From a virus, in UHGV virus genome UHGV-0375936: a stretch of DNA of 64,000 nt; one strand, given 5' to 3'. The notes beneath the pieces are model-generated. The model had not been told where the DNA came from. It ran no database searches and saw only the letters and a list, made by a program, of their open reading frames with translations. This document shows positions 2,819-61,900 of the stretch, one piece after another; within the stretch, counting starts at the first letter, position 1; every line of letters starts with the position of its first letter. The position numbers and the translations under genes were made by a program.

Positions 2819-4990
2819 GTGGACGCTAGATCAGCTAACGACTCAAGCTGGGTCAGAAATCTATTTAAGGGAGAGTTGGAAGGCCGAGATGAACGTTTTC
2901 TGGCCTTGCGACGCTACTCTAACGGTATGATGTCTTTTGAAGATACGACCATGGGCGGTAGTAAAGCGATTAATAGCCCTCCGCAGTTTACGTGGTTTGC
3001 AGACCCCCCATCAACTGGGGCATTTGCACGACCCGGTAATCGTGAGGCGGAGAAAAAGGCGTTGGCTAACGGTATGCCAACCGCTTCTTATCGCTTAGGG
3101 ACGTATTATTACGAAAGTATTAACCAAAATTCGTTTTACGTACATTGCCGTTTCGGCAAACCGAAATATCTGGGCATGGCCGCGTTCTTTGCGAATATGT
3201 ACGATTCCAACTTAGCATATTTAGCGCGTACGGGTGACTATCCGGGAATGATCCGTACGATAGCAAGTTATATCGGCGCGGCAGCGATATGGGCAACGGT
3301 GGGTACTGTCGCTTTTGCGGTAATTTTAATTACTCCACGCATTCTCGCGGCAGCGTTGAATAAAGAAACGTCGCGTTATTATTACGTTAAACCGACGATG
3401 CATCTGTATTTGCGTGCTGTACAGAACATCTTGAATACGCAACTTGTTTATCGTCGTTTGGTTCCTACGGGTATCTTAGGTACCTTCCAGGTCAGTCAAG
3501 ACGGAGATGGAAAAGGGAACAAAAAAGCACGCGATGAGGCTTTTGAAGCGTTACCGGAGGTTTGGAAAAAGGGCGGTGAATTCGATGTCTTTAAGATGAT
3601 CAACCGTTATCAAACTTTGGCGAACTATCAGAATCAACGTTTAAAAGAGCTTCGTAAGCAGTCCTCAAGTGACGACGAACTCGCCGAGCGGATACGAAAT
3701 TTCTATCTGGATAGCACGTATGGTGCAGCTTCGTATTCTGACGATGTGAGAAATTACGAAGTTTCTTTGCAAGACATGGAACGGTTAGCCGCTTCCGAAC
3801 GCGGTGGTTATGCGGCGAAAGACGCGTCGGGTAAAGATATTAACAGCGTTGATGAACTGGAGAAAGGGGTTCTCGATGCGTTTAGTTCCGGGTTACAAAC
3901 TGGGGGAACGGCAAGCGACCTAGAGGCGCAGGCGGCAGAAATCCAAAACAAAATGAATGAGGATTTGGAAAATGCCGATGCGAGTAACCTCACCGAGGGA
4001 CAACAGAATACGATACAGTCCTGGGCGGATAAAGGTAAAGAATCAACCATGGAGACGTTCTTCGGCGACTTTGTTAAAGTGGTTGGCGAACAGATTGAAG
4101 GGATTAAAGCACAGGCGCTGTCCGAAATCTACAATGGTTCTCAGTGGGTGACCTGGAGAATCGATGGGAAGGACACCGTCTCTCGTTCGTTCTCTAACTC
4201 CACAAAAGAGCCGGAGATTTCTAGTACAGTTAACTCAATGACGGCGAAAGCTCGTCAACTTGAAGTAAACTTGTCTGGCGGGCAAACCGGCTTCAACGCT
4301 GTCGATTCATTAATTACAGGCTTTAAGTCCGTAATGCGTGGGTTAGCAGATACGCTGCATTTAACGGGGATTATGTCGTTATATAACTCATCCGTCATCG
4401 ACTTCCCAGAGGTGTGGGACAGTTCAGATGCCTCGGGTGACGATATTAACTTGACAATACCTTTACGTGCGTGGTCGGGAAGTGACCTGGATATCTTCCA
4501 GGAGATTCTAGTGCCGCTGTCCTTTTGGATCGCCGCAGTATGTCCAATTGCGACGGGTAAACAATCATTCACACATCCGTTTTATTTGGAATGTTACTCA
4601 CAAGGCCGATTCTCGTTCCGTAATGCTATCGTGACTTCTTTGTCTTTACAATTCGGTGTTGGTGGTTTAGGTTGGCGACCAGGTGATTCTGTTCCACTGT
4701 CTTGTGATATCAATGTTACCATCCGCGATTTGTCCCGTGTGATGTATATGCCCATCGTTACAGACACTGGTGTTTGGGACGACGATAATAAATTCAGTGA
4801 GTTTATGGCGTGTTTGGGTGCAGCGACGTTGTACGAGCGTACGAACGGTATAGAGCGTGCCAAGATCCAGGGAAGCATTTGGGCACAGAACTGGGCATCT
4901 GCATGGTCACAAGGCAGCTTTATCAACTCTGCGTTTGATGTGCTTCCAGCACGCCAGATCGCGAACATCTTCTTGCCGCAAGCACGTTAA
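2819..4990 (+). CDS. Hypothetical membrane-associated protein (723 aa), GTG start
   Basis: GAGG 6 nt upstream of GTG; long ORF; hydrophobic helix IGAAAIWATVGTVAFAVILI; same strand/operon as SLT protein. Confidence 0.6.
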   Translation: MDARSANDSSWVRNLFKGELEGRDERFLALRRYSNGMMSFEDTTMGGSKAINSPPQFTWFADPPSTGAFARPGNREAEKKALANGMPTASYRLGTYYYESINQNSFYVHCRFGKPKYLGMAAFFANMYDSNLAYLARTGDYPGMIRTIASYIGAAAIWATVGTVAFAVILITPRILAAALNKETSRYYYVKPTMHLYLRAVQNILNTQLVYRRLVPTGILGTFQVSQDGDGKGNKKARDEAFEALPEVWKKGGEFDVFKMINRYQTLANYQNQRLKELRKQSSSDDELAERIRNFYLDSTYGAASYSDDVRNYEVSLQDMERLAASERGGYAAKDASGKDINSVDELEKGVLDAFSSGLQTGGTASDLEAQAAEIQNKMNEDLENADASNLTEGQQNTIQSWADKGKESTMETFFGDFVKVVGEQIEGIKAQALSEIYNGSQWVTWRIDGKDTVSRSFSNSTKEPEISSTVNSMTAKARQLEVNLSGGQTGFNAVDSLITGFKSVMRGLADTLHLTGIMSLYNSSVIDFPEVWDSSDASGDDINLTIPLRAWSGSDLDIFQEILVPLSFWIAAVCPIATGKQSFTHPFYLECYSQGRFSFRNAIVTSLSLQFGVGGLGWRPGDSVPLSCDINVTIRDLSRVMYMPIVTDTGVWDDDNKFSEFMACLGAATLYERTNGIERAKIQGSIWAQNWASAWSQGSFINSAFDVLPARQIANIFLPQAR

Positions 4991-5570: not shown

Positions 5571-5596
5571 AAAAGAAAAAAAAATAAGAAAGTTAA

Positions 5597-5630
5597 CCTA
5601 CCTCCTTTCGGAGGTAGGTGCTTTTATTTA
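5597..5630. terminator. Bidirectional rho-independent terminator between convergent genes
   Basis: CCTACCTCC-tttcg-GAGGTAGG hairpin flanked by A-run upstream and T-rich run downstream. Confidence 0.6.
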
Positions 5631-11179: not shown

Positions 11180-11240
11180 AATCGTTTTCTCCGCTTGAAT
11201 GTAGTTCGGGGAGACATAAGTCTGTTCCCAACTGTAAAAA

Positions 11241-11624: not shown

Positions 11625-11667
11625 AGGGTAAAAAATGAAAATACCCTACTCCCAGACAGGAGTAGGG
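11625..11667 (-). terminator. Rho-independent terminator (minus strand)
   Basis: CCCTACTCC-cagaca-GGAGTAGGG hairpin followed on minus strand by TATTTTCATTTTTT. Confidence 0.6.
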
Positions 11668-11673
11668 TAGGTG

Positions 11674-19837: not shown

Positions 19838-19935
19838 CGAGCTTTACCTTTATGGAAGAGTCTCGGTCATAAGGTTTGGGTGAACTGTAAAAAGACTTTA
19901 CTATGTAACCCTGACTTATAATCCGAGGTTTTAGA

Positions 19936-30984: not shown

Positions 30985-31020
30985 AGATTACCCTACTCCT
31001 TCGGGAGTAGGGTAGCTTTT
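30985..31020. terminator. Bidirectional rho-independent terminator
   Basis: ACCCTACTCC-ttcg-GGAGTAGGGT hairpin, A-run upstream, T-rich downstream. Confidence 0.65.
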
Positions 31021-31594: not shown

Positions 31595-31629
31595 GAAAAA
31601 GAATTAACCCTACTCCCGGAGGAGTAGGG
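31595..31629 (-). terminator. Rho-independent terminator (minus strand)
   Basis: CCCTACTCC-cgga-GGAGTAGGG hairpin then TTAATTCTTTTT on minus strand. Confidence 0.55.
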
Positions 31630-35432: not shown

Positions 35433-35634
35433 TCATATTCTCCTCAGGCTCGAAATGTGATTCGGGTGGCAACGTCCCTAAAGCCCCTTGGATACAAGCC
35501 GTCAGTGAAGGTTTGCCGAAACAGACCTTACCTATCGTCCCCACATTGGGATGCTGTAAGAACGCTTTCGCACGTTCGTATTCTTTCCAACAAATACTCG
35601 TATCCAAACCACCCACTCCGTACGATTTTAACAT
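35389..35634 (-). CDS. Hypothetical protein (81 aa)
   Basis: CAGGAGAG 8 nt before ATG; overlaps downstream gene by 44 nt in another frame. Confidence 0.4.
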   Translation of the reverse strand: MLKSYGVGGLDTSICWKEYERAKAFLQHPNVGTIGKVCFGKPSLTACIQGALGTLPPESHFEPEENMNVHREPINLRHTVE

Positions 35635-35700
35635 AATTAGCTCTCCTGACGTAAATTTCTCACACTCATAGTGAGGTACGCCAAGAGAGCTTTATTGTTT

Positions 35701-39144: not shown

Positions 39145-39164
39145 ACCCACCTCCATAAAGACGG

Positions 39165-39217
39165 AGTGTGGTGTAAAAAGAAAAAAATAAAGAAAGGGAG
39201 AACCCGAAGGTTCTCCC
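39165..39217 (-). terminator. Rho-independent terminator (minus strand)
   Basis: GGGAGAACC-cgaa-GGTTCTCCC hairpin then long T-run on minus strand. Confidence 0.65.
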
Positions 39218-47113: not shown

Positions 47114-47453
47114 GATTTACTCGCTAATCTCAATAAAGGGGAGTCTATTATTATGGATTGTAAAAGAGGTATAAGGAAGTCACTACGTTCCTCTGGGAAG
47201 AGTATGTCGGTATACTACGTATACCTCCGCTATTTATATCCGTATACATAATGCCCCCTACCCCCTACCGGTATCCCGAGTAGCAGAATAAAGGGACATA
47301 ATGTAATTTTTAGTACCTGTTATCGGAAGGTACTAAATGGAGTGTAGTCTTTAAGCCGTTTGAGCAGCTCATTGAGACTTTCTTTCTTTTTAGTAGACAT
47401 GATCTGTCTCTCCAAATGGTTTAATCAATCCGTTTCGAATGAAACGTGCTCGT

Positions 47454-47508
47454 AGGGACTGAACTGGTACTTCAGTCCCTATTCACTTAAGTAAAATATA
47501 TCTGAAAT
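47454..47508 (-). promoter_or_regulatory. Conserved 25-nt motif plus leader hairpin (copy 2); candidate promoter
   Basis: Minus-sense ATTTCAGATATATTTTACTTAAGTG followed by AGGGACTGAA...TTCAGTCCCT hairpin; 23 of 25 nt identical to copy at 43101-43125. Confidence 0.35.
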
Positions 47509-47533
47509 CAATTCCGATCTAAGGAACGTCCCG

Positions 47534-48499
47534 ATGGAGAAATCCAGTGTTGATTTTTTCTCAATTGGTATCGTCGCGGAAGACAAACCCCGTGGTACAG
47601 ATCGGGTAAAAGTGATACCAATTGAAACCAACTTTGCTAACCCTACCGTGGTGCAATCTGTTTCTTCAGCAACTGAAAAGACGCATGAAACGTCCGGTGC
47701 AACAGATAACCTAACCATTAAGACGGGTAACACGATAACCGCAAAGTGGTGGAAGTTTAACTCCAACCGAATTAATTCCCCTGACGTTAAACGAGAAGAC
47801 TACGTTATCTTGTTGCGTTTGGGGAAAACCGATATTTATTTTTGGATTGATCTGAACTTCGCTAACGTTAAGCGATTAGAAGATGCGGTTTATGCGTGGT
47901 CGGCTGACCCTGAAAACCAAATGGCGGATGACTTGTCCAATGCGTATGTGTTGAACGTTTCGACGATTGACAAACATATCACGCTAAGAACGAGTATGGT
48001 GAATGGCGAGAAAGCGGCGTGGTTGTTTCAGTTTGATAATGCAAACGGTACGTGGCAGTGCGTTGACCATAAAGGAAACAAGTATTACATTAACTCGGTT
48101 GAAGATGATCTCGGGTTTGAGAATGCGATGCTTTCAAAAGTGAACATCAACAAAGAAGATGCGTTCATTTATTCAAAGCGTTCTATTAACCTGGAAACGA
48201 AAACGATTAATGAAAAATGTGAAGTCCGCAATACGGAAGCAGCGAATTCCGTTACGTTTAAAACACAAACCTGGTTAACAGAAGCGGGCAGTTCGACAAC
48301 GTTTAAAACGCCGAACTTTAAACAAGAAGGGAAGGAAGCGATGTTCACCGGTAATTTGGAAATCGCTAAGAACTTCAAATACGGTGGTACGGGTGAAGGC
48401 GTGGGTGTCTTTACGGTTAAAGATGCCATTATTTCCGGTATTACCTTTAGCGTTCACATTCACCAAGGTAAACATGGCCCGACATCACCTCCACAGTAA
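47534..48499 (+). CDS. Hypothetical structural protein (321 aa) with His-rich C-terminus
   Basis: First gene of plus-strand late block; C-terminus SVHIHQGKHGPTSPPQ; function not established. Confidence 0.55.
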   Translation: MEKSSVDFFSIGIVAEDKPRGTDRVKVIPIETNFANPTVVQSVSSATEKTHETSGATDNLTIKTGNTITAKWWKFNSNRINSPDVKREDYVILLRLGKTDIYFWIDLNFANVKRLEDAVYAWSADPENQMADDLSNAYVLNVSTIDKHITLRTSMVNGEKAAWLFQFDNANGTWQCVDHKGNKYYINSVEDDLGFENAMLSKVNINKEDAFIYSKRSINLETKTINEKCEVRNTEAANSVTFKTQTWLTEAGSSTTFKTPNFKQEGKEAMFTGNLEIAKNFKYGGTGEGVGVFTVKDAIISGITFSVHIHQGKHGPTSPPQ

Positions 48500-48706
48500 T
48501 TCCCCTTTTTCTTACGTTGTTTTTATATATTGTGACCTGACGTTGGTAAAACTTTTTATCAACACTTTTCTTAAACCCATCGTTTAGTTAAGCAGGCCAC
48601 TTTTTTTCGCGCACTCTACTCCTCCCTACGGGGAGGAGCTATCTTATGCTTCGGTTGTAACACACGTCGGTCTTAGACCACTAACCTTTTGAAATGGAGA
48701 GCTGTT

Positions 48707-48916
48707 ATGTCTATTAAAGAGTTCTCTTCTGCTGAGCATATTCCAGAAGAGTTTAAGAAAATCGGTAACGTTAGCGCTTTCGGCGATACCGTTGATCATG
48801 TAACTGGTAAACTGGCTGCTGAAGCTGAAAAAATTGGCGGCGACGCATTCAAAGTTATCGGTATTTCCGGCAACAACAAACTGCACGGTAACGCGATTGT
48901 CTACAAAAAAGACTAA
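48707..48916 (+). CDS. DUF1471 (YdgH/BhsA/McbA-like) small protein without signal peptide; probable host-derived moron
   Basis: ATG at 48707 preceded by GGAGAG; mature-domain-like sequence KIGNVSA...GDAFKVIGISGNNKLHGNAIVYKK; codon usage (CTG, GGT, AAA) resembles enterobacterial highly expressed genes. Confidence 0.55.
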   Translation: MSIKEFSSAEHIPEEFKKIGNVSAFGDTVDHVTGKLAAEAEKIGGDAFKVIGISGNNKLHGNAIVYKKD

Positions 48917-48920
48917 GCGA

Positions 48921-48977
48921 AAAAAAAAACGTGCTACTCCTACCCTCTAAGAGGGTAGGAGGTTACTTTATTTTTTT
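48921..48977. terminator. Bidirectional rho-independent terminator
   Basis: CTCCTACCCTC-taa-GAGGGTAGGAG hairpin with A10 upstream and T7 downstream. Confidence 0.7.
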
Positions 48978-50230
48978 CGTGCTCTAAAGCGATGCATTTC
49001 TAAATACACTTTTTCCCAGGGACCGAATGGACCGACGATTGCTTGCGCGTCGTTAATCTTCTTCTGATTATACCACCGGGCTTCACGAAAGACGTAGTTT
49101 TGACTGTCGAACTCTGTGGTGTTAAATACCCACTCACCCTCCTCCCATGTAGGCCAATAGCCCACCGTCTTTCCGAAGCGGTTGTTTAAGTACCCTAACG
49201 GTTTTTCAGAATCAGGATCGTTAGGGTCCTTGAGATAACAACGTCCCCAAACTGCGTTATGCGATACACCCACAACCTCTTCTTCTAAATACGGATTATC
49301 TACCGTAAAGATAAACGAAGACTCGTGGAGTAAAAGCGCCTTTAATGTTTCGGGGTTGCGAATACGTTGGACATTAGTAGGTGTTGATAAATCCCCCACA
49401 CCGATGGCGTCCCAGTCGTAATAGCGACGGGTTTCCAGAACGGTCCGCGCAAGATCAAAATTCGGTAAAGAAATCATGATCGCACGGTCGGAGAAATAAC
49501 CGCCCGGAGGCAACCAACGTAACAGTCCACCGATGACGAAACCCACCGTTTTTCCCGTAATAGATTCGGGTAGCGAAATCATTAACGTGGAGTAATAGTC
49601 ACGTGTGGTGTCGAGCTTGTTTAGGGTAAGGTTGGCAATGGGGTAAGTTTTAACATTCCCTAACTGACCAAAAACCATACAGCCGATATCTGGCGTACAG
49701 GCCCTTCGTACAATTTTACCGGCCCCGGGTAATCGGACACCTACGGTATCTGTCTGATGCGCTACCCATTGACCGTTAATGTTGTACAGTACACTATTAC
49801 GGTATTTGTCCTTCCACTTGTCCTCACAAACGATGACAACGTCATCAGCATCATCTAAGCTGAAATCTTGACTGTGGTGGTACCCCGGCGGACACAGGTA
49901 CGTTTCAACGGGCACGTCAGCATTAATCGATTGGTAATGTGCCCAACTGAATTCGAGTTTCGGCAATCCGGCCTTTAGAGTGGGGATGACGTTTCCGGCT
50001 TTTTCATTTAACCAATCTTGTAAAGTGTCTGTTCGGTTTTGTAGTTCGGCAAGATGGTATTGGCTGACTAACGTATAGTCTTTACCAAGTGCACTTAAAC
50101 CGATCTCAAAGGTGTGGTAGTCTGAACACAACGTATTTAAGGGTTGCGTGACATCGATGGCTCCCCAGGTACGGGACTCTCGAGAGAAGCCAAAAGCGCT
50201 GTCGGGCCGCACTTGATAAGCAGTAGTCAC
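48968..50230 (-). CDS. Hypothetical protein (420 aa), minus-strand gene within late block
   Basis: Long ORF convergent with DUF1471 gene. Confidence 0.6.
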   Translation of the reverse strand: MTTAYQVRPDSAFGFSRESRTWGAIDVTQPLNTLCSDYHTFEIGLSALGKDYTLVSQYHLAELQNRTDTLQDWLNEKAGNVIPTLKAGLPKLEFSWAHYQSINADVPVETYLCPPGYHHSQDFSLDDADDVVIVCEDKWKDKYRNSVLYNINGQWVAHQTDTVGVRLPGAGKIVRRACTPDIGCMVFGQLGNVKTYPIANLTLNKLDTTRDYYSTLMISLPESITGKTVGFVIGGLLRWLPPGGYFSDRAIMISLPNFDLARTVLETRRYYDWDAIGVGDLSTPTNVQRIRNPETLKALLLHESSFIFTVDNPYLEEEVVGVSHNAVWGRCYLKDPNDPDSEKPLGYLNNRFGKTVGYWPTWEEGEWVFNTTEFDSQNYVFREARWYNQKKINDAQAIVGPFGPWEKVYLEMHRFRARKK

Positions 50231-50298: not shown

Positions 50299-53200
50299 AT
50301 GGCTGTCGTCCTAGACCCACACTTCAAAAAACCGGGGAATAAAATAACCGGTGAAGCGGTCGCCGTCATTGGTACGAAATACCGAATGTTGGTACCTGCC
50401 CACGCCCCTTTTTTCACCACATCCCTGGTGGTCAAGAGCGGCGGCAAAACACTGACCTTAGGCGACGATTACATTATTACACACCCGTACGAGACCGGTA
50501 TGTTGCGCACAGCCTATCTCATTCACGGGATGATTTGGATTGTTAATGACAAATACAAATCGAATTTTACGGTAGATTACCACGCCGTTGGTTGTGGTCA
50601 GGCTACCCAACAACAGATTACCGCAGAACGCGAACTCAATAAAGATAAATACCCGACTACGTGTCAGTGGGACACCGTCATCGGGGACGTTTACTTTCCG
50701 CCGGTCGATATCCAGTTCGATTGGGAGAATTGGAAAGGTGAACTGGAATTAATGCAGGCTATTGCTGGATTAGGCGATTCGTTAGGGGAAGTCGTGAGTC
50801 GACTTAACCCCATCGCACGCAATACCCTGGATTTAGAATACCGTGCTAACAGCAAGGTTATCACTTCCGAGCAGTATGCCGCATACGACAATAAAGGTGG
50901 GTTCACCTACAACACTACCCGTCATCGTTATAGCTTGAGTTATAAAACTGCAACCTTTAACGACTACGCCCTGTCAGTGAAACATAGAATTCCTGCTATT
51001 CTGCCAGACATGACGAAATTGAATCCAAACGAACAGATCGATTGGATGCTCTGTTATGCTAACGGCGGGGCAAGTATTCTACGGCTGCAGCTAAAACAGC
51101 GCAAAATCTCACTGGTCTTAACGGTCGCTATTGGTAGCGGTTCAACAAACTACGATTATACGTTAATCAACGGTTTAACTGACGATGAGTTAAAAAACGA
51201 TATCGATTTTAGTGTAACCCGTCAACCCGGAAACGGTGTTTACGTCATCGTAGTAAAAACAAATAAACAGACCATGGATTACACATTCAACGTCGATACG
51301 CCGCCTGATGAGTTCTCGGCAGGGTATTCGAAAACGGATGTTGCTAAATGGTTGAAGTCTAAAACGAACATTAACCTGAACTGGTATGCTGGACAAAAAG
51401 ATTATGTTCAAATTCGTTCTTTACCCGGCGCACCAGAACCTGACGTCGACAACGATGTTTACCAGTTAATAGTTAAATACCATCAATTAGTTGAGCAGCT
51501 GTATCGTAACGCGCCTGCACACGAACACGTTACACGTAAGGACAACCCGCACACCGATACGTGGGGCCCGATCCGTGCGTTACAGCTGAATGGTATTGCG
51601 TCGGATGCCGCGTTAGCTTACGGGAAAACGAAACAACAGTTAACGGATTATGTTAATGCTAAGTACCCAACACAAGCAACGTTAACCGCACAGAAAAAAC
51701 TGCTTCGTGAATCGGCGAACAAGAACGTTAACGGCACGATTACCACACTTCCGGGTTTTACTTCGTTCACGACGGAAGTTGATCCGGTTTCGATGTCGAA
51801 ATACGTGAGTCCTAGTTTTAGCGAAAGCTACGTTAGTAATGGTCACAGGTATCACGGTGCGCTTCGTTACACAGGAACGAAAAGCGGTTTCAGTGCTAAC
51901 TTTAATGCGGTGCCTGCCAACCTGCAAGATATTGACTTTATTGTTACCGGACGTAAAACAGCGTCTGGTAACGAAGCTGTCGGTGCAGTTGGTTTGCGTT
52001 TCTACGAAAACCCCGGTAGTAACTCCGGTAAGTTTGTAGAGATTAACGGACAAATCTGGGCTGGTACCCTTACTATCAGTCTGACATTGAACGGTTACGG
52101 GAGTCCGTTACCGTCGGTGCGTTATATTTCTCAAGCCCCTAATCCGGCAATACCGGATGGAGATTTTACGCTACGTTTTCAACTGAAGCGTACAGGGAAC
52201 GTGTTTGACGTCGTTATTACCGTAAACGGTAAAACGTATAGCGCCCGGATTAACTTCAATAACATGGACGCTGCGTTAGAAGCATTAGAGAATCAGCACC
52301 ACTTTAAATCGCTGATCAATAATGTTGCCGATGGCGTCAAAATTAGTTCGCAAAACAAAGGTAACACGGTTACCATTAAGAAAGCACCGGATGTCGTTGA
52401 CGGAACTCGTTTAGGTGCCCAGTTTGTCGTTGATCCGAAATCCATTAAGTTTATTGGCCAAGGTTCAACTGATGTTAACGTAGGAAATAACCCCGTAACG
52501 TTCCAAGCAGGTACTAACCAGCTTATGTTGTATCCTGACGATCGTGGGTTACAGTGGCGTGGTAAAAAACTCTTAGACCCTACCACCGTGGCCCCGTATC
52601 TGCCAGGTAATACCGCAGGTGGTACCGGTTTATTCTACGCAAGCTCGACAACAACAGTTACGATCACTGGTAGCGGGATAAAAGCTTCGCCGTTCGTAGC
52701 GACCTTTATTCTCCCTACCGCGACCGATACAACGGCTCTGGCAGCTTGGCAGTTGACCGATGAGTTCGGTACTGCTGAAAACCTTGCAGCAACGCCAGCA
52801 CTGATTGAAAAACTGGATGCGGAGTTCACCGGTAAGTTAGTTGCAGTTAAATCGTACATTAACGACATGCAGCTTACCAGCTCGGTTACTATCGATAAGA
52901 TTACCTTCGGTTTAGGTAATGTTGCGAATACGCCCGATGTCAATTTACCGATTTCTACAGCACAGCGTGCGGAGTTAGATAAATACTCGCCTAAGGTTCA
53001 CCAACACCCGTTTACCGCTTTTGGTACCGGGAACGCAACCACAGCGAAACGCGGTCTGATTAAATTTGGTCTGGATGTGGATGATGCGACTTTAGCACTC
53101 GATGGGAGTGTGGTAATGGCGCAGACTTCCCAGATTGAAAAATTGGAGAGTGCTGTCGGCGGCGTTGACTCGGAGGCACGTCTTGATATCATACGTTTTG

Positions 53201-54621
53201 GTGAGTCTGGTAACGACTTAATAGACGTTACGGTCAAAGACAAAATTCTGGTCACGCTTCCAGCTTCAACGTATTTTATCGGTGGCGAAACGTACACCGT
53301 ACCGTTGATGACGATTAACGTTAGTGAACGTTTTCCGAAATTGAATACAGAGATCTACGCGGGGATTTTTGTTGATATTGTTGATAACAAAGCGAAGTAT
53401 ATTATCCACGACAGCTACAGTCAGGCCGAAACGGATACCATGACGCGTGTGGGGTTGATCGGCGTCAACGACCTTTCTGAGGTGTTCGTTACAGAGATGC
53501 GTAATGTCACACGGTTGGGTGATTTCCGTGAACTGAAAGATCATAAAGCCGATGACAACGCACACATTCAGCGCTCCGCATCACGTGCAGCGCTTGGGTT
53601 AGCTAACTTAACCGTAGGTGCGCCTTGCTGGGCTTCTGGACTCCAGGCAGTAGTACGCGGTGAAGCAGATTGGCGTTATGTTGCCGGTGGACAGTATAAA
53701 GCTTTAGACGGGGTGAAATACGACCAGCTCGCATCCAAGTGGATTTTTGACGCGAAAGGGGTAAGCGATAACCTACACGGGTTTATCCACAACATGTTCC
53801 CAGCTTTTAAGAACGCAGGAATGCGGGTAAGTTGGGAAACAGAAAGCAACGCAAAAACCGGCACGGTGTTAGAAACTGTTTTAGGTTGTTGGAAAAACAC
53901 CGACGGCGAGTTTATGCGGTTGTCGTTACTTATCACTCGTGGTTATCGTTTAACTGACAGCAACGGTGAGTATTGTTACGCAGGGTTCGGTTTGAACTTC
54001 GGTAGCGGGAAATCGGTAGTGTTAGGTTTCACACCAACGAAGCGTGTTACGCCTGCACCGTGGAATACGTTACAACCTGACGTAACGTTTACCCACACCC
54101 GTGCTGCAAATAACGCATTAACGTTTAACGCAACACTGACCTTAGCGGGCACTACGTATACCGTCGTGGTGTTTTTATCTGCGACAGATAAATACGTAAG
54201 CTGCACGGCAGCAGGGGGAGCTACGCAGAAAATCCCTCTAACTGACCGTTTAACAGGGTTCAACCTCGCACCTATCGTTAACGATCCGTATACCCCTATT
54301 TACTACGGTTTAGGGGGACTTTATGAGGATGAGGTTCGTGCCAACATCCGTTCTACGGCAGACAGCGCAACCGCGAATAAAGTCTACGGTACGTTGTTAG
54401 ACTATATTAGCAACTATTCCTCATTAAATCGTGTGCGCGTTATGGAATTGAGCGGTGTCAGTTCAGACCCCGAAACGCTTAATGCGTTAGTGGCAACTGA
54501 ATTTAATAACAACCTGGCGGATTACGCCGCGTTACCGATACCTTCTTATCTTAACAAGGAGCGCGTAATGTCGTTTATCGACACCAACAATAAAGTGCAG
54601 GCGGTAATCATTCGCGATTAA
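50299..54621 (+). CDS. Giant tail fiber protein A (1440 aa)
   Basis: Tail-fiber motif FGLGNVANTPDVNLPISTAQRAELD...HQH; ATTAKRGLIKF repeat; N-terminal module VPAHAPFF..LVV...LGDDYI shared with next two ORFs. Confidence 0.75.
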   Translation: MAVVLDPHFKKPGNKITGEAVAVIGTKYRMLVPAHAPFFTTSLVVKSGGKTLTLGDDYIITHPYETGMLRTAYLIHGMIWIVNDKYKSNFTVDYHAVGCGQATQQQITAERELNKDKYPTTCQWDTVIGDVYFPPVDIQFDWENWKGELELMQAIAGLGDSLGEVVSRLNPIARNTLDLEYRANSKVITSEQYAAYDNKGGFTYNTTRHRYSLSYKTATFNDYALSVKHRIPAILPDMTKLNPNEQIDWMLCYANGGASILRLQLKQRKISLVLTVAIGSGSTNYDYTLINGLTDDELKNDIDFSVTRQPGNGVYVIVVKTNKQTMDYTFNVDTPPDEFSAGYSKTDVAKWLKSKTNINLNWYAGQKDYVQIRSLPGAPEPDVDNDVYQLIVKYHQLVEQLYRNAPAHEHVTRKDNPHTDTWGPIRALQLNGIASDAALAYGKTKQQLTDYVNAKYPTQATLTAQKKLLRESANKNVNGTITTLPGFTSFTTEVDPVSMSKYVSPSFSESYVSNGHRYHGALRYTGTKSGFSANFNAVPANLQDIDFIVTGRKTASGNEAVGAVGLRFYENPGSNSGKFVEINGQIWAGTLTISLTLNGYGSPLPSVRYISQAPNPAIPDGDFTLRFQLKRTGNVFDVVITVNGKTYSARINFNNMDAALEALENQHHFKSLINNVADGVKISSQNKGNTVTIKKAPDVVDGTRLGAQFVVDPKSIKFIGQGSTDVNVGNNPVTFQAGTNQLMLYPDDRGLQWRGKKLLDPTTVAPYLPGNTAGGTGLFYASSTTTVTITGSGIKASPFVATFILPTATDTTALAAWQLTDEFGTAENLAATPALIEKLDAEFTGKLVAVKSYINDMQLTSSVTIDKITFGLGNVANTPDVNLPISTAQRAELDKYSPKVHQHPFTAFGTGNATTAKRGLIKFGLDVDDATLALDGSVVMAQTSQIEKLESAVGGVDSEARLDIIRFGESGNDLIDVTVKDKILVTLPASTYFIGGETYTVPLMTINVSERFPKLNTEIYAGIFVDIVDNKAKYIIHDSYSQAETDTMTRVGLIGVNDLSEVFVTEMRNVTRLGDFRELKDHKADDNAHIQRSASRAALGLANLTVGAPCWASGLQAVVRGEADWRYVAGGQYKALDGVKYDQLASKWIFDAKGVSDNLHGFIHNMFPAFKNAGMRVSWETESNAKTGTVLETVLGCWKNTDGEFMRLSLLITRGYRLTDSNGEYCYAGFGLNFGSGKSVVLGFTPTKRVTPAPWNTLQPDVTFTHTRAANNALTFNATLTLAGTTYTVVVFLSATDKYVSCTAAGGATQKIPLTDRLTGFNLAPIVNDPYTPIYYGLGGLYEDEVRANIRSTADSATANKVYGTLLDYISNYSSLNRVRVMELSGVSSDPETLNALVATEFNNNLADYAALPIPSYLNKERVMSFIDTNNKVQAVIIRD

Positions 54622-54631
54622 GGAGAATTTT

Positions 54632-57600
54632 TTGATGAAAGCGTATCCTTACGATCCTCGGGGGACGAAAGCCGAGAATCACTTCTTAGAGGAGCGTATC
54701 ATCGGGTCAGAGAACAACAACGATCGGGTGGTGATTTTAGACCACCGCCCGTTCTTTGAAGATTTGGTCGTCAGACAACCAGGTTCAACCACCCCACTGA
54801 GTCGTGGGGTGGACTACGAACTGCAATATCAGCTGACGGAACTGGATGACTCGGTAGCAGCCAACGTGTATTGTGGGGTACACCTTATCAACCCATCCAT
54901 CAAAGGCATCGTAACCTTTGAAGGACAAATGCTCGGCGGTACGTTCTACGACCCGTTTGTTGATATTCTCGATGAACTGGTGAAATATTTGAATAACCCT
55001 GTCAGTGCTGACTGGTTGTTATTAGACGGTAGACCATCGTTATATCCAGCGACGCCAGCAGCAACGTCCTGGGCGGATTTGCTGAACAAAAAATATTTAG
55101 CGTCGGCAGTTCACGATATTGAATTGAAAACCGACGACGCTAACCAGTTAATTAAAGACAAATTAGCTGAAGTTAAAGCGTTAGTGACTGCGTTGGGTAA
55201 AGAAATCGAAGCATTTAACTACCCGGCACATATCGCGGAAACCAACCCACACAAAACCACATCCGCGCAGATTAACGCGCATCCTGTTAACTTGAAAACA
55301 CCCGACACCTTTATGGCGTACGGGTTAAAGTTGAAAGCGCTGACGGATGAGCTGAAAGCGTTTCGTTTACCCCAGTCAGTTATCGACACGTATATCTCTC
55401 ACTGGATTTCTTCGGAAGTACGTGGCGTGTTTAACTGTACGGTGTCAGGAAACCGCGCACAGTTCCGTTCGAAAAACGGTGAGTCAGAAATCATTTTTGC
55501 CAACGATGGTTTTACGTTAAAATCCAACGGTTCTGTGGTATTAGCGGTAGGGCATCTGGAAGGTACGGGTGCAGGACGTTACATTAATTGGCGTGCCGGT
55601 AAAAACACATTACGCATCGAGTCAACAGGCGATGCTTTAGGGATGAACAAACTCACCCTGAACGGTAACCCGTTACTGACTACCACGGCGTTGATGGAAT
55701 ACCAACAAGATCCAGATGCGGGTTCTGGTGGCGGTGGCGACCCTGATGACTCGAAGGTGTACATTGAAGGCCGTAATGGGATTAGCTTTACCGGTAAAGG
55801 TTCTCGCGCCGACCCTATCGTGGGGACTATCGACCCAACAAAAGCGACAACCGCCGAAAAAGGCGTCGCTAAACTTAAAACAGGTAAAGGTACAGAAACG
55901 ACTGGGGTTGCTGCAACTCCGGCTTCGTTAGCACCATACTCGACTGACCTATCGGGGTATGTGGCTAAAACGACCATGATTAACGGTAAGCCGATGAACG
56001 ACGGCTCCAGGACAATCACGAAAGCTGATCTGGGGTTAGGGCAAGCGAATAACACCGCAGACGTTGACAAACCGTTGTCTACCGAGTTAAATGCGGCGCT
56101 TAGCGGCTTAGCGGATGCAGGCCACCACCACGATTGGTCGGAACTCGGCATTTATAAAGCCTCGCAATCCGTTTACGGTATCGGTCGTTACGCAACTAAC
56201 CAGAACGGTTTGGTTGAAAACCGTGCGGTAGTACCGAACATCTTAAAAGAACTTTCGGCGCGTTTAGATGTGGTTGCTGCGGCGATTGCAAACGCGAAAG
56301 AAGGATCGGTAACGGATTTCGCTGCGGTAAAAGGCGCAGAGTGGCGCTTTAATAGTCAGGGTACGGCAATCTCCGTTCAAGATTTGAAGTATTTCTATTT
56401 GCTGAACGGTACGAAAGCTGATAGCACCGTTACAGGTTCGATTGACCTGCAAACTACGCCGATGTTTAACTGGTTCTCACCGAACAACCAAATTGAGACG
56501 ACTTGGCCTACGGGGAAAGTGAGCGCTGGTAAGGGTATTAACTGGACAGGTATTGAAGAACCACCACTAATGGGTTTCCAATCTGTTCCGGTAGGTAAAA
56601 CTGCCTCACAGATGGGTGACCAGTCAGTTGTTACTGTGTTGGCCAAAACGCGGGTAAGGGCACACCAGTCGAAGCTTTGGGTTTATGCCGCAGGGGGTGG
56701 TCCGGTTACAGTTTACATTAACGGTATCCAGGCAGCCACAGGCCAGTCTCCACTCGTTGCAGTGCATGAAACATCAGCAGACGTTGAAAACTACACCGTA
56801 GCGGTTAAAGCTGAGTGTAGCGACACAGCTAAATCCGCAGCGGTGCAATTCGAAATTTACGACGGTGACTACCCCGTTTATTTCAGTGGCCCTGAAACGC
56901 GCGTAGAGCTTCTCCAAGAGTTTGTTACAACACACGTAGGGATTCGTCATTATCTGTACGTTAACATGCTCACAAGCTCTCTGTATTCGCGTACTGAGCC
57001 AATTCAGAGTGTTGCAGTTGATCCTGAGCGCGGTTATATCGGCTACGTTGATATTGTTGCCGGTGAGTCTTACGCGAATAAGAGCGTGAGTTTTGAAACC
57101 ACGTTTGATTTCGGGAAAAGTGCCGAGGTTAGTGAACACATTGACACACGCAAAGCACACGGACTCAGCTCTGTAGACTGGACGTTAACGGATAACCCAC
57201 GTTTCCCGTTATTAAATCGTGCGATTGCAGAGCCGAGAACGTGTATTTTTAGAAAAACGTTAACGGCCGGTACTGGTGACGTTTTTCATCTCGTGAGTCG
57301 TGGTCTTTATACTTACGCACATAACCAAAACGTGAAGTCCAGTCTTCAATACGTTGTGATACCTGAAGGTGCTACACCGTATTGCTGGTTTACGCCGTTT
57401 AACCCGAAAGAAAACAACGCACCGACGTTCGAAGGTTCGTTTGTGTTCGACGTTGACGACGTCGGTGGAACACAAGCGCTCACGGCTGCACCGGATTTGG
57501 TGCTGTGTACGTCAACACAAGGTAGCAGCGTTAAACGTCGTTACGTACGTATTGACCTAACTGCCAAAGCGTGTAAGCTGGGGATTGGTTCTCGTTCAGA

Positions 57601-58816
57601 TTCTGCGGTTACGGATATCCCGTTAGTGATGGAGGAATCTGGGGAAACGGCGGTGGCGGCAACGTTTAAGGATGTGTTGTTCAACGGCGAGGAAACCAAC
57701 GCAGCGATACTCGACTTGATAGGCTGGGGTCCAAATAAAGACAAAATCTCTGCAAACCACGCGCCACGAGGTATGATTCGTTATCGTTACAACGTAAACA
57801 CTCGGGTATTACGTTTAGCACTATCGTTCTCACAGTTCGGAACGACAACAGTTAAGCACCGCCAGTTGGAAATTGAATTTCCGTTTGATTTGGTGGATTA
57901 CTTCACCGGTGACGGTGTAGGATTGTCGTTTAAAGAACTGTCTGCGAAATGCCGTGTAACGATTAGCCACGCACTGATTGATCCGGTTACGACTAAAATC
58001 GATATTGATAAGTATCATTACCTACGCTCGTTATTTGAGTCGTATTTGGATGCATCTGTTGGTTATTTGGCTGATACCAAAGACGCCGACTTTAACCAGT
58101 CTGTGATTGACCCTGCGACTTATGAGATTAATCAGAAATACCGCGTTACCGAAAGCATTGCGCTGCCGACCGGTCAGGGAAGTGTTGCTGTTTCCCATGA
58201 CGGTCAGTTACCTGCACAGTTCTTTGACCGTAAGCTGTCTCGCGGTGCTTTGATGGCCAAGAAAGGTGAACTTCATACTTCCTGGAACAATGAGTGGAGT
58301 ACATCCAAAGCTGCCGCAAACCGGTATCGACATAAACTCATTCTGCGCTTTGCACAAGGTGCTGATAAACAACAGTACCGTGTTGCAAAAGTGACAGGAA
58401 CGGTGAAGTGTAACTGGCCGGGCAAGGTGATTATCGGTGATGCTGGGAAGGACGCGTATGTATCAGCTATCGATAGCGTGCCGTTTGCGCTTTCGACCAG
58501 CGCGGACACAGGTAAAGCAGTTACCCTTACGCCAAAGGATCTACGTGTAGGGCAGGACATTTATATTGTCTTAGAACCACCAGGCAATAATCCAGAAGGC
58601 TACGAGCTTAACTTTACCTGTTCGTTAGATGTCACTGACGAGAAAGGTGTCCGTCAAGACCAGCTCAATGCGCAGAGTTTCGAACTCCGTAGCGGCGAAA
58701 GTCAGTTCTTAATGGAGAAACGCAATCCGTACCACATCACGAGTAAAGCGTGGAAGTGGATTCTGGCTGTACTGAAACGAGAACTTAACGGGAAGCAGTT
58801 AGGGGATCGTACTTAG
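54632..58816 (+). CDS. Giant tail fiber protein B (1394 aa)
   Basis: LGLGQANNTADVDKPLSTELNAAL...HHHDW; KATTAEKGVAKLKTG repeat; Gly-rich GSGGGGDPDD; AAGGAG RBS. Confidence 0.75.
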   Translation: MMKAYPYDPRGTKAENHFLEERIIGSENNNDRVVILDHRPFFEDLVVRQPGSTTPLSRGVDYELQYQLTELDDSVAANVYCGVHLINPSIKGIVTFEGQMLGGTFYDPFVDILDELVKYLNNPVSADWLLLDGRPSLYPATPAATSWADLLNKKYLASAVHDIELKTDDANQLIKDKLAEVKALVTALGKEIEAFNYPAHIAETNPHKTTSAQINAHPVNLKTPDTFMAYGLKLKALTDELKAFRLPQSVIDTYISHWISSEVRGVFNCTVSGNRAQFRSKNGESEIIFANDGFTLKSNGSVVLAVGHLEGTGAGRYINWRAGKNTLRIESTGDALGMNKLTLNGNPLLTTTALMEYQQDPDAGSGGGGDPDDSKVYIEGRNGISFTGKGSRADPIVGTIDPTKATTAEKGVAKLKTGKGTETTGVAATPASLAPYSTDLSGYVAKTTMINGKPMNDGSRTITKADLGLGQANNTADVDKPLSTELNAALSGLADAGHHHDWSELGIYKASQSVYGIGRYATNQNGLVENRAVVPNILKELSARLDVVAAAIANAKEGSVTDFAAVKGAEWRFNSQGTAISVQDLKYFYLLNGTKADSTVTGSIDLQTTPMFNWFSPNNQIETTWPTGKVSAGKGINWTGIEEPPLMGFQSVPVGKTASQMGDQSVVTVLAKTRVRAHQSKLWVYAAGGGPVTVYINGIQAATGQSPLVAVHETSADVENYTVAVKAECSDTAKSAAVQFEIYDGDYPVYFSGPETRVELLQEFVTTHVGIRHYLYVNMLTSSLYSRTEPIQSVAVDPERGYIGYVDIVAGESYANKSVSFETTFDFGKSAEVSEHIDTRKAHGLSSVDWTLTDNPRFPLLNRAIAEPRTCIFRKTLTAGTGDVFHLVSRGLYTYAHNQNVKSSLQYVVIPEGATPYCWFTPFNPKENNAPTFEGSFVFDVDDVGGTQALTAAPDLVLCTSTQGSSVKRRYVRIDLTAKACKLGIGSRSDSAVTDIPLVMEESGETAVAATFKDVLFNGEETNAAILDLIGWGPNKDKISANHAPRGMIRYRYNVNTRVLRLALSFSQFGTTTVKHRQLEIEFPFDLVDYFTGDGVGLSFKELSAKCRVTISHALIDPVTTKIDIDKYHYLRSLFESYLDASVGYLADTKDADFNQSVIDPATYEINQKYRVTESIALPTGQGSVAVSHDGQLPAQFFDRKLSRGALMAKKGELHTSWNNEWSTSKAAANRYRHKLILRFAQGADKQQYRVAKVTGTVKCNWPGKVIIGDAGKDAYVSAIDSVPFALSTSADTGKAVTLTPKDLRVGQDIYIVLEPPGNNPEGYELNFTCSLDVTDEKGVRQDQLNAQSFELRSGESQFLMEKRNPYHITSKAWKWILAVLKRELNGKQLGDRT

Positions 58817-58852
58817 GACAGACTGCCTGCGGGCAGTTGTGTGTCCGTAGGT

Positions 58853-58892
58853 AACCCCTCCCTGTAATGGGGAGGGGTATCCATTTTATTTA
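58853..58892 (+). terminator. Rho-independent terminator/attenuator between tail fiber genes
   Basis: ACCCCTCCC-tgtaatg-GGGAGGGGT hairpin followed by ATCCATTTTATTT. Confidence 0.55.
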
Positions 58893-58910
58893 AAAGTAGG
58901 AGTCTTTACG

Positions 58911-61900
58911 ATGCCGAGAGAAGACGCGGCGCAGTTTAACGGTACGCTAAGCACAACGACGTACCCTAACCGATTTAACGTGGTCATTCCGCCTGAAGGA
59001 CCTTTTTATCGTATCGGATTAAAACTCACAGTAGCCGACGATACCGCGCCTAACGGACGTCGTACTCTGATTGAGGGGTTGGACTACTATTTAGGCTATT
59101 ACTTTAAAGAACTCGCAGAAGCTGAACAAGATCAGATTTATGGCGGGTTTATGTTGCTTACTGCAACAGAAATCGAATATGAGATTTTAGGGGTAGCACG
59201 TCAATACCGTGTACCGCAATCTGAAATCGGGAAGTTCTTAGTTCGTACTGACCTGAAAGACCCACGTAACGTGGACTGGTCAGAGTTAATGGCGTATGCG
59301 CCAGTTATTCAACCTATCGATCCCCCTGCTAACTTAGAAGAAGCTATCCTGAGGGATGAGGTTGTTAAAGCGTTAAACGATATCCGTAAGAAAATCATTC
59401 AACGTTCAACAGAGTTAGATGCAGCGTTTACCGAAGTCACTAACCTGATTTACGAGAACGGTAAAAAGATTTTCGATGAAGAACTATACCAACACCACCT
59501 TAATCCTAACGCTCACCAGTATACGACCACTGATGTTGGTGCTCTTCCGGTTTTGGGACGTGCTGTTGACGCGACAAAAGCGTTTGGACTGACGATTGAC
59601 CAGCTGGCTACGCTGATGGGTTCGGCGGGTATTGAGCAATCAGACGTTGATCAGTTAATAGGTGAAGCCCTCGGCACTGTTTACGGTCGTTGGGGCAGCA
59701 CGAACGGTAACGAACTGACGTTTAAAACCGCAGGCGGACACATCATCAGTATCCGTGGTGATAAGTGGTTAATTACCTCACCGCAACCGTTGGTGATTAA
59801 AGCAGACCAGGACAACAACGAATCGGGTTTGGCGGTTGAATTTAGTGCGGGGCTGAATACGCTTTGGGTACACTCTGGGACAGAACAAGATGTATTAGCG
59901 CCGGTTTACAACTCTGTGTATTTGGTTACACCAGAAATGGTGAACATGTACCTTACGTCTGTAACGTTACTTGAAGCAAATGCCTATTTCAAACCATCAG
60001 ACACCGTAAAACCATACGGTACAGCGAAGCAGTCTAATCCGCTAACGTTGAACGCGAATATCCCCACAGCAACCGAGTCGGTTTATGGGGTGTTTTCGAT
60101 TACGAATATCGCAACCTCCGTAGCACTAGGCACTGCTATTTCCCAAAAGGCGGTGACCGAATTAAAAGACCGGTTAGACTTGTACGTTGACGATGACTAC
60201 ACGGTTAACGGTAAAGGGTTTGTTAAGACAGGCGATAAAATGGTGTTAACCTTAACGAAAACCGATTTCGGTATCGATAAGATGGATAACACCACGCCGA
60301 TCGCTAAACCGGTAACAAAAGCGTTAGCGAATGTGCTGAAAAATAAAAGTTTGAAGGTGCATACGCACACTACCGCCGATTTGGATAATGTCCCGATTGG
60401 TAGTGCGACCGTGGATGGTATCTTACAGCTGTGGGATGCGATTGATACCACGAATGATAAAGCCGTCACATCACGCCAAGGGTGGTTGTTCGCAAAAGAG
60501 ATTAAGAAGGTCTCTGATAAACTGAATACCCTCTTGCCCGCATGGACAACGTCCGGGAGCAAATACACCAATAATTCGATATTGCCGATCTTGTCGATGG
60601 GTAATTACGAAGGTTATGGTAAAAACATGGATGCGCTCCAGATGGTTATAGGGGTACAACAAGGTAAGCTTTATGCTTTAATTAGTTCTAAATCTGCCCT
60701 TCCGGGAACTGAGGGTATTTATTACGCTGTTGCTGGGTTAAAAAACGACAAAAGTCTCGGTGAAATTTACAAAACAACTTTCCGTTATAAGCCGAAAGGG
60801 TTAGAGACGAATTATCCGGGGGTGGAACTAAAAGAAATTACCGTTACTGGCACCGAAGCATTTATAGCGAAGGGCAGCGACGATAATTATTATTTAGTTA
60901 AACTGAACGGTTCAATGGATTACACCAAACATACCGATGTCAGGTTGGTAACTTTCTCAGAATTTGTTTCAGAAACAACATGGGAATTTGTGCCGAATAT
61001 GTTCATGGATCGTGTGGTCATAGCCGATAACGGCGTCTATGTTTTGCGTACGATGCTAATGGCCGATCTGAAAAACAATAGTCTGGTGGACTACATTAAG
61101 GATACTCCGCAACCTATGTTCCGTGTTGGGTTATTGCGACTTAATAAAACCGATCGGTTTGAACAGGTTGATTTAAGCTCTACACGAAAAATCGGTAAGT
61201 GTGCCGATTTGGTTGAACCTGGCGCGTTCGATGTAGATAATCCGAATACGAAGCGTCTTGCCTACTTCACTGCGGAAGGCAAAGCGTTGTGGACAGTGAA
61301 TTTACAATTAACTAGAGGGGTGTCAAGATGGATAACGCCCGTTGTTAAGGACGGTCACTTGTTAACCGTCGGCGTGTCTGGCGTTTGTCTTGGTTTTTCT
61401 TCAACGAAAGGTACCACATTCGGGCCATGGAATGGTGCTTATCGTCTCGACCTATTAACCGGGGAGGTTGGGTTAGAGACAACTAACATCTTCCCAATCA
61501 AAATCGATACTACAGGTTGCTACTTAAAAGACGGAACAAAAATAGAGCTGAAATGGAAATGGGCTACTCGAAGTTCTGGCTATATGGCCGACAATAGAAT
61601 CTGTGTCGGTGATATGGTTTATTCTTGCTGCTGTTCGACAGAAAAACAACTTGCACCGTCTCTCCATTACCAGAAACTCCCAGAAGGAGTTAGTTATCTG
61701 GACTATGTTAAGTTGAGTGCGGGGTATGAGGGGCAATCTACGTTTGAAAATCGGATAAACCCTGTGGTGGGTTCGGTGTGGAAACCGTCTATGACCTTCC
61801 CATTGTTCTTCCCAGGAACAAACAAAGTATGGCTTAAACATCAAAAAACGGCTTATTTCATTGAAGCCGAATATGATAAAGATACGACTTATGGTTATCC

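Follow-up and report, generated by a model that had tools for sequence, protein, structure and literature searches.

A DUF1471 gene without a signal peptide at a conserved tail/baseplate locus of Enterobacterales-infecting jumbo phages

Introduction

Why should a bacteriophage carry, between genes for its tail and baseplate, a domain known from periplasmic stress proteins of enterobacteria, and why should that domain be encoded without a signal peptide? The question is raised by a 64,000-nucleotide (nt) stretch of the virus genome UHGV-0375936 (hereafter, the window), in which a first-pass annotation had singled out a 69-residue open reading frame (ORF) resembling the mature part of YdgH/BhsA/McbA-type proteins. 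That annotation saw in it a moron, recently acquired from a host, visibly foreign in its codon usage and possibly turned to a new task in the cytoplasm. A moron, as Hendrix and colleagues use the term, is an autonomous unit of promoter and terminator within a functional block, with patchy presence and deviant base composition. Bacterial members of DUF1471 typically have a Sec signal peptide and a periplasmic location, neither of which belongs to the Pfam domain definition. Here we examine the identity of the gene, its history, its regulatory signals and the role that its product may have in the phage.

A DUF1471 domain encoded without a signal peptide

The predicted 69-residue ORF proved to be real. 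It opens with an ATG at 48707, closes with a TAA at 48914-48916, and is preceded by a ribosome-binding site:

48707 to 48916, plus strand: signal-less DUF1471 (YdgH/BhsA/McbA-like) gene, supported by the ORF and its translation, Pfam, PHROG and AlphaFold
48696 to 48699, plus strand: Shine-Dalgarno sequence GGAG, read from the sequence, 7 nt before the ATG

The translation, MSIKEFSSAEHIPEEFKKIGNVSAFGDTVDHVTGKLAAEAEKIGGDAFKVIGISGNNKLHGNAIVYKKD, has a computed mass of 7.36 kDa and a computed isoelectric point of 6.3. It matches the Pfam family PF07338 (YdgH_BhsA-like) with 38.2 bits (E 1.4e-9; residues 17-67 against profile positions 2-55 of 55), above the gathering cut-off of 27 bits, and it aligns over its full length with the phrog_8068 profile (residues 1-69 against positions 1-70 of 70; E 4.5e-32). 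An AlphaFold2 model with a predicted local distance difference test (pLDDT) value of 89.4 shows the order strand-strand-helix-strand-strand, and a Foldseek search of this model against PDB returned the YdgH domains 4EVU and 2M2J at the top, together with 2MA8, 2JNA and 2NOC, at a probability of 1.0 and with query-normalised template modelling scores of 0.69-0.78 for the solved DUF1471 structures. Further fold neighbours were SrfN/YahO-type proteins, RcsF, dodecins and a selenium-binding protein. A sequence search of PDB gave meaningful matches to 2MA4 and 2NOC only; the solved structures (the YdgH domains 4EVU and 2M2J, and 2MA8, 2MA4, 2NOC and 2JNA of related Salmonella proteins), all from secreted or periplasmic proteins, are 17-25% identical to the window protein. 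The likeness to a mature DUF1471 domain noticed at first reading is thus upheld by profile score and fold, and the gene encodes a domain of the DUF1471 fold whose counterpart is the mature portion of BhsA/YbiJ/YahO-type periplasmic proteins of enterobacteria.

With BhsA/YcfR (ComC), YbiJ, YahO, McbA and YhcN the window protein shares the Pfam family, the fold and the C-terminal pattern GNN..HG.A..YK, and the DUF1471 core motif GNNKLHGNAIVYK is kept in the phage proteins; unlike the BhsA-type proteins, the window protein is signal-less, acidic, phage-encoded and made in the cytoplasm, with a conserved N-terminus that is specific to phages. Its top NCBIfam model is BhsA (NF047859; 46.8 bits, profile positions 30-85 of 85), which leaves it short of the equivalog cut-off of 90, and its scores for YbiJ, YahO, McbA and YhcN likewise lie far under the respective cut-offs. 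The name 'multiple stress resistance protein BhsA' that GenBank gives to phage orthologues is accordingly an unjustified over-annotation.

By profile match and position the gene is the orthologue of gp172 of Salmonella phage SPN3US (PHROG 8068). Like the window protein, gp172 has 69 residues, lacks a signal peptide and begins with MSI(K/R)E, and its gene occupies the same locus between gp173 and gp171 and ends at the same convergent terminator. The two proteins are 44% identical, in contrast to 65% and 76% for the flanking proteins, and the window carries the other of two allele types (KKIGNV...; see below). The family is already catalogued, as PHROG 8068, as 'DUF1471 domain containing protein' or 'BhsA' in GenBank, and as gp172 in SPN3US proteomics, so the window gene adds a member to a known family. 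A literature search on DUF1471/BhsA in jumbo phages returned no dedicated study, and the missing signal peptide, the clade-wide conservation and the allele mosaicism are undiscussed there.

The absence of a signal peptide, also claimed at first reading, is secured by the sequence upstream of the gene. An in-frame TAG at 48674-48676, 31 nt 5' of the ATG, limits any N-terminal extension to 6 residues (from a TTG), so that no signal peptide can be encoded. In the alignment with the BhsA profile, all that the window protein lacks is the signal peptide and a few residues. Within its first 35 residues no 12-residue segment exceeds a hydropathy of 0.39, whereas most full-length bacterial homologues reach about 2.0 or higher, and by the same measure a hydrophobic N-terminus is absent from all 11 phage homologues compared (the window protein and ten others). 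The DUF1471 phage protein must be synthesised in the cytoplasm, where a role is possible.

A fixed locus in jumbo phages of Enterobacterales

The gene had been described as inserted between structural genes, and homologues of two SPN3US tail proteins do stand on either side of it:

47534 to 48499, plus strand: baseplate assembly protein, homologue of SPN3US gp173 (phrog_3216, E 1.3e-113; synteny)
48968 to 50230, minus strand: essential tail/baseplate protein, homologue of SPN3US gp171 (phrog_3337, E 9.5e-144; 76% identity to gp171)
50299 to 58816, plus strand: two virion structural paralogues (1440 and 1393 residues) of the SPN3US gp170/gp169 baseplate/fibre family (phrog_7557 and phrog_8078; synteny)

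Both gp171 and gp173 are clear tail proteins: gp173 was scored 'Tail' in proteomics, and gp171 is essential, tail-associated and a homologue of phiKZ ORF130 (PMC5105663). The gp170/gp169 family is paralogue family C of SPN3US (PMC5694885).

Translated searches (tblastn) found the DUF1471 protein in 60 phage records, at 45-80% identity and mostly over the full length from the first methionine. These records span SPN3US-like, phiEaH2, Machina, Wellington, Derbicus and CR5 phages, and the carriers among the matches listed are jumbo phages of 197-251 kb that infect Erwinia, Salmonella, Escherichia, Cronobacter or Proteus; the restriction of DUF1471 to Enterobacterales therefore holds for its phage carriers as well. 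A megablast search of the 511-nt locus against phages gave no match, and a protein search was required. The gene order is common to these phages: the phrog_3216 baseplate gene, the DUF1471 gene on the same strand, the convergent phrog_3337 gene and the large structural paralogues. It is identical in SPAsTU, ChrisDB, SPN3US (gp173-gp172-gp171-gp170), Wellington, pEa_SNUABM_29, EarlPhillipIV, a Logan contig and p98232, and the eight loci in IMG/VR all lie on contigs of 107-246 kb. The gp171 homologue occurs in 87 records, and among Salmonella, Cronobacter, Proteus and Enterobacteria phages it is counted as often as the DUF1471 gene; all clade members inspected (sharing at least 44% identity) have the DUF1471 gene. 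In the Vibrio phage pVa-21, used as outgroup, the two flanking genes are adjacent with no DUF1471 ORF between them, and tblastn found the gene absent from Goslar and the Ea35-70/RAY group. Among the loci inspected and the record counts compared, absence is confined to distant outgroups, and presence among close relatives is not patchy.

The closest annotated relative of the window gene (WP_079772428.1) is on p98232-contig_4 (NZ_CP173450.1, E. coli 98232), which entered the database as a circular plasmid of 221,873 bp from a urinary isolate but is really the genome of a Seoul-like jumbo phage. It shows the same gene order and near-identical regulatory flanks, with 85.9% nucleotide identity over 48600-48977 and 93% identity in the protein. 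The exact window protein was found on 501 contigs and the 93%-identical variant on at least 1000, and where the database entries carry a name, this is Shigella, E. coli or Salmonella. These contig counts agree with a report of Seoul-like jumbo phages that are 'persistent' in assemblies of isolates (bioRxiv 10.1101/2024.12.31.630880).

Erwinia phage Wellington departs from this single-copy arrangement. Its gp190 is an orthologue at the same locus (57% identity, signal-less), and gp189 (186 residues) is a second, tandem signal-less DUF1471 copy with a long acidic low-complexity tail that is probably disordered; the two genes lie at 4001-4847 of the compared stretch.

A probable ancient domestication rather than a recent acquisition

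Is the gene, then, a recently acquired and compositionally foreign host moron, newly put to use in the cytoplasm? Its domain is host-derived, it lies between structural genes with a putative promoter, gene and terminator in the order expected of a moron, and it is missing from the Vibrio phage outgroup, Goslar and the Ea35-70-like relatives. Against this stand its presence at one and the same locus in 60 records from phages of several genera, and four further lines of evidence.

First, a HMMER search of 1.84 billion representative sequences returned four to five signal-less clusters of the phage type (68-78 residues), then a sharp drop in score, and after it bacterial proteins of 80-86 residues in which the match starts near residue 30, past the signal peptide. 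Second, in a rough neighbour-joining tree the phage DUF1471 proteins form one group apart from their bacterial relatives; no close relative was found among 185,579 bacterial and archaeal species represented by one genome each, the sole nucleotide match in E. coli comes from a plasmid entry that is really a phage genome of 222 kb, and identity to solved bacterial DUF1471 proteins is about 25% at most. Third, the ratio of nonsynonymous to synonymous divergence (dN/dS) is 0.06-0.12 in close orthologue pairs, with dS mostly saturated, which speaks for long purifying selection.

Fourth, the composition is that of the phage. The GC content of the gene (0.426) and of its third codon positions (GC3, 0.41) falls within the range of the 56 phage genes in the window. 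Codon foreignness was assessed by Monte Carlo sampling and by comparison with actual phage-gene segments of 68 codons, and was not significant: in 29% of these segments synonymous usage departs from the phage pool as far as in the DUF1471 gene (G = 50.1) or farther. The likelihood of the gene under phage codon usage is above average, and phage-preferred codons are slightly commoner in it than the mean. Its sole mild oddity is a low share of G-ending codons (0.10 versus 0.22, about the 4th percentile), and it favours codons that end in a pyrimidine. This pattern fits the translational optimisation of a highly expressed gene, not a foreign origin.

Because dS is saturated, dN/dS is low, the locus is fixed and no close bacterial relative exists in the genomes searched, we regard the DUF1471 gene as an old, selected resident. 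A recent acquisition is accordingly extremely improbable, and the visible difference in codon usage on which that view leaned did not survive the comparison with real phage genes. The layout of putative promoter, gene and terminator resembles that of a moron; patchy presence and deviant base composition, which are also part of the term, are lacking. We infer instead an ancient domestication, in which the ancestor of the clade captured an enterobacterial host DUF1471 gene once, the signal peptide was lost and the gene became fixed.

Two deep allele types

The phage proteins fall into two deep alleles, ...KKIGNV... (window, SPAsTU, ChrisDB, phiEaH2) and ...VEAGTVQVSG... (SPN3US-like), which are about 44% identical. 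Nucleotide identities in the gene and in its flanks run in opposite directions in two pairs of phages:

SPAsTU versus SPN3US: flanks 75-85%, DUF1471 gene 35-60%
SPAsTU versus ChrisDB: flanks 55-70%, DUF1471 gene 70-80%

The allele distribution thus conflicts with the flanks and suggests either the exchange of a cassette by recombination among jumbo phages or the persistence of ancient alleles.

The neighbouring baseplate gene (47534-48499) has a hypervariable segment of its own at about 48218-48330, with 10-50% nucleotide identity in most pairs compared with 60-85% in the rest of the gene. Co-variation of the DUF1471 allele with this segment was considered and not seen.

Signals for transcription around the gene

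Hairpins had been reported on both sides of the gene. The upstream one exists, at 48619-48638 and not at 48620-48642 as first given; the downstream one was rightly called a strong bidirectional terminator. The signals of the locus are as follows:

48596 to 48612, plus strand: conserved motif GCCAC-T7-CGCGC, an invariant block in alignments of 4 and of 12 phages (G[CT]CACTTTTTTC in all relatives)
48619 to 48638, no strand assigned: upstream hairpin CTCCTCCC-TACG-GGGAGGAG, with an 8-bp stem and a 4-nt loop
48625 to 48648, plus strand: putative phiKZ-type promoter CCTAC-N15-TATG, from a conserved motif, with TATG at 48645-48648
48920 to 48977, no strand assigned: bidirectional intrinsic terminator, with A10 at 48920-48929, an 11-bp stem and 3-nt loop at 48937-48961, and T7 at 48971-48977

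The downstream terminator has a predicted folding energy of -30.7 kcal/mol (z = -6.5 on the plus strand and -5.9 on the minus strand) and serves both the DUF1471 gene and its convergent neighbour, the tail gene whose last codons are overlapped by the T7 run. Its position is kept in SPAsTU, ChrisDB and SPN3US, where substitutions in the stem preserve the pairing. The upstream hairpin has a weak T-tract after its stem and overlaps the putative promoter; relatives have a different hairpin at the equivalent spot, several with a clear run of T. Behind the baseplate gene, the window hairpin probably serves as a weak terminator or as an insulator. The window contains 20 perfect G+C-rich hairpins of at least 8 bp, whereas dinucleotide shuffles yield 1.07 +/- 0.93. 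Most lie at gene ends and several have CCCTACTCC/GGAGTAGGG-type stems; since they occur genome-wide and mostly at such places, the hairpins that flank the DUF1471 gene are ordinary gene-end punctuation. Examples at 5596-5619, 11642-11669, 30989-31014, 31608-31629 and 48937-48961 resemble a family of intrinsic terminators.

An alignment of the intergenic region from 12 phages shows poor conservation apart from discrete blocks. One of them, directly after each phage's hairpin, is TTTAC-N15-17-TATG, in which TATG is present in all 12 phages and TTTAC in 8. The ribosome-binding context TGGAGA is likewise kept in 11 of 12 aligned phages. Late promoters of phiKZ contain TATG, whose G is position +1, and its middle promoters contain AAanTTACc near -24 (PMC4666361); SPN3US-type phages are members of Chimalliviridae and encode RNA polymerases of the phiKZ type. 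Because the TATG motif is conserved, phiKZ promoters look alike and these phages have such polymerases, we propose a promoter for a phage polymerase, which by analogy would start transcription near G48648 and give a 5' untranslated region (UTR) of about 58 nt. Comparison of the window with p98232 gives about 95-100% identity for the promoter stretch and the terminator, whereas the synonymous sites of the gene and the 5' UTR between the putative start and the ribosome-binding site have diverged; this pattern of identity indicates that the regulatory elements are under constraint. With its TATG promoter motif, GGAG and conserved bidirectional terminator, the DUF1471 gene looks like a transcription unit of its own.

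A strict form of the motif, TTTAC-N14-17-TATG, is not enriched in the window (4 matches, 3.1 expected). The four matches, all on the minus strand (11215-11238, 19868-19891, 35632-35655 and 39154-39177), lie in noncoding sequence or at the 5' ends of genes and are oriented with the downstream gene, one of them overlapping a start codon. Their placement hints weakly at a class of promoters resembling phiKZ middle or late ones in this phage. The pattern TTTAC..WTRTGAC was uninformative.

Upstream of each phage's hairpin, the spacer that follows the baseplate gene (48500-48612) has blocks shared across genera, none of which recurs elsewhere in the window: (T/C)TTAC about 10 nt past the stop codon, WTRTGAC, TCG(C/T)TTG and, without variation, G[CT]CACTTTTTTC. 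A second promoter or a protein-binding site is a possible role for these blocks. The motif GCCAC-T7-CGCGC occurs only once in the window and is specific to this locus; GCCACTTTTTTCGC, considered as a general promoter or repeat, was rejected, having one true copy in the window and a count not above chance. RNAalifold found no consensus pairs in the intergenic block of nine sequences, and single-sequence folds were unremarkable. Neither Rfam families nor tRNAs were found in the window.

What the protein may do: published proteomics and competing readings

The explanation that we favour would run as follows. The ancestor of the Seoul-like jumbo phages that infect Enterobacterales (relatives of phiKZ in Chimalliviridae) would have captured a host DUF1471 gene a single time; the captured gene would have lost its signal peptide and become fixed in the tail/baseplate block, under purifying selection. 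From its own promoter, with GGAG, its codon preference and the terminator, it would yield a very abundant, soluble, acidic 7-kDa cytoplasmic protein at middle or late times. The domain would then serve not as a periplasmic stress protein but as a small stand-alone binding module in tail and baseplate morphogenesis, either an assembly accessory or a loosely attached peripheral part that is partly lost on stringent purification. Taken as a whole, this explanation of a domesticated, signal-less, abundant DUF1471 protein with its own transcription unit and an accessory role in the tail or baseplate seems to us evenly balanced between right and wrong; within it, the identity and the history of the gene have good support, whereas for the mechanism by itself, a binding module in morphogenesis, our confidence is lower, and we offer it tentatively.

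Proteomics of SPN3US bears on these steps. In virions prepared with a CsCl step, gp172 was identified by 4 unique peptides and 6 spectra that cover 81% of its sequence; relative to mass, its spectral count is 0.86, against 0.93 for the portal. It is described as the smallest protein of the virion and was not seen in a gp47 mutant (PMC5694885). The 2017 authors also remark that a 7-kDa protein is easily lost from gels (PMC5694885). A later study tagged gp172 both 'Tail' and 'Unusually high abundance in cell' (PMC7411985 Table S2), the latter statement being an annotation in that supplement. Its own promoter motif, ribosome-binding site, pyrimidine-ending codons and conserved terminator lead us to expect a very abundant middle or late protein, and this expected high expression fits the annotation. 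That gp172 is made is certain, and its amounts are apparently large; as a stable component of the virion it is a candidate.

Several observations count against the favoured explanation. Counts of gp172 were 6 in the wild type, 3 in one suppressed mutant, 2 in heads and 13 in a crude sample from differential centrifugation, so that the highest value came from the crudest material, while doubly purified tailed particles gave 0 peptide-spectrum matches (PSM); four further CsCl-purified preparations with 2-39 PSM of gp171 also gave 0, and three of these four were prohead-plus-tail preparations with 23-39 PSM of gp171 each (PMC7411985). Nor is gp172 in the 2023 table of wild-type and tailless particles. 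Because its association with virions and tails is so inconsistent, gp172 in particles could simply be an abundant contaminant. No phage virion chain matched the DUF1471 model in the Foldseek search of PDB, and the allele types do not co-vary with the flanking baseplate genes, which speaks against a tight, co-evolving interface. On the side of expression, the promoter call draws solely on the conserved motif and the analogy with phiKZ, and the clade of the window carries CCTAC without the TTTAC half-site.

The same proteomic pattern invites a second reading, in which the protein is an abundant, non-structural effector of the cytoplasm, a decoy or sponge that engages a host protein or a small ligand through its dodecin-like fold, and its presence in particles is contamination. 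The high abundance in the cell, the top PSM value in the crudest preparation with none in well-purified samples that contain tails, and the absence from the 2023 virion table are what it would lead one to expect. Its fold neighbours include ligand-binding oligomers (the dodecins) and a selenium-binding protein, and the two deep alleles, with the tandem Wellington paralogue and its acidic tail, suggest diversification. Such an effector could matter in long-lasting 'persistent' Seoul-like infections, since the exact protein is found on hundreds of contigs from isolate assemblies and Seoul-like phages are reported to be persistent. An invariant tail/baseplate position in the same orientation as the baseplate gene would, however, be unexpected for a gene of host takeover; the type of promoter suggests middle or late rather than early expression, and a ligand or partner is known for no DUF1471 protein. 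We consider this reading rather unlikely.

Could the protein instead be a low-copy component of the baseplate or tail tip, which enters the periplasm at infection and acts on the envelope as BhsA-type proteins may do, with no need of a Sec signal? The 'Tail' label derives from a comparison with a tailless mutant, the count per mass in wild-type virions is close to that of the portal, and the gene stands between two tail/baseplate genes. Loss of the signal peptide would be required for incorporation into particles that are assembled in the cytoplasm, and the core motif GNNKLHGNAIVYK is retained. Yet the protein is not reproducible in purified tailed particles or tails, solved structures offer no matching chain, and a low-copy part has no need of high cellular abundance, all of which makes this reading quite improbable.

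A related proposal is that the protein is made late and, like a canonical endolysin, enters the periplasm by way of holin lesions, to act on the outer membrane or envelope at lysis. It would account for a domain of periplasmic type without a signal, and for a late-type promoter motif together with high abundance. No recognisable lysis gene is nearby in the window, however, membrane disruption is known for no DUF1471 protein, and the proposal is purely inferential; we rate it highly unlikely. The broader idea that joins these last two, in which a clade of nucleus-forming jumbo phages would have turned a periplasmic envelope-stress domain of the host into a signal-less protein, abundant in the cytoplasm, that enters the envelope independently of Sec, by way of the baseplate or of holin lesions, and mimics or antagonises BhsA, YbiJ and similar host proteins, is a long shot.

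Other features of the neighbourhood

Two further features of the surrounding region touch the structural genes. Downstream, a third member of the structural family extends past the end of the window:

58911 to beyond 64000, plus strand: third structural paralogue, gp168-like, of more than 1,696 residues, seen as an open frame past the window end

An apparent ORF-free gap of 2.7 kb (58817-61523) is an artefact, as the paralogue that begins at 58911 passes the window end and is absent from the ORF lists. Upstream of the baseplate gene, a divergent spacer of 420 nt (47114-47533) contains ORFs of only about 32 residues or less and an 11-bp hairpin at 47453-47481. SPN3US and SPAsTU carry a gp174-type gene of 105 residues at this place, which may have been lost or decayed in the window.

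Significance

As the window gene is an orthologue in a family that is already catalogued, the immediate importance of the finding is modest. The phages that encode gp172-type proteins have proved to be persistent in many isolates of Salmonella, E. coli and Shigella, and if the envelope-acting reading were true, the protein would perhaps contribute to this persistence without killing, which makes the phages so common in assemblies of clinical isolates. The gp172-type proteins are cheap targets for study, being only 7 kDa in size, and an amber-mutant genetic system exists for SPN3US. DUF1471 proteins are among the most stress-induced and least understood small proteins of Enterobacterales, and a phage version that is signal-less, long selected and abundant amounts to a natural experiment on what this domain binds outside the periplasm.

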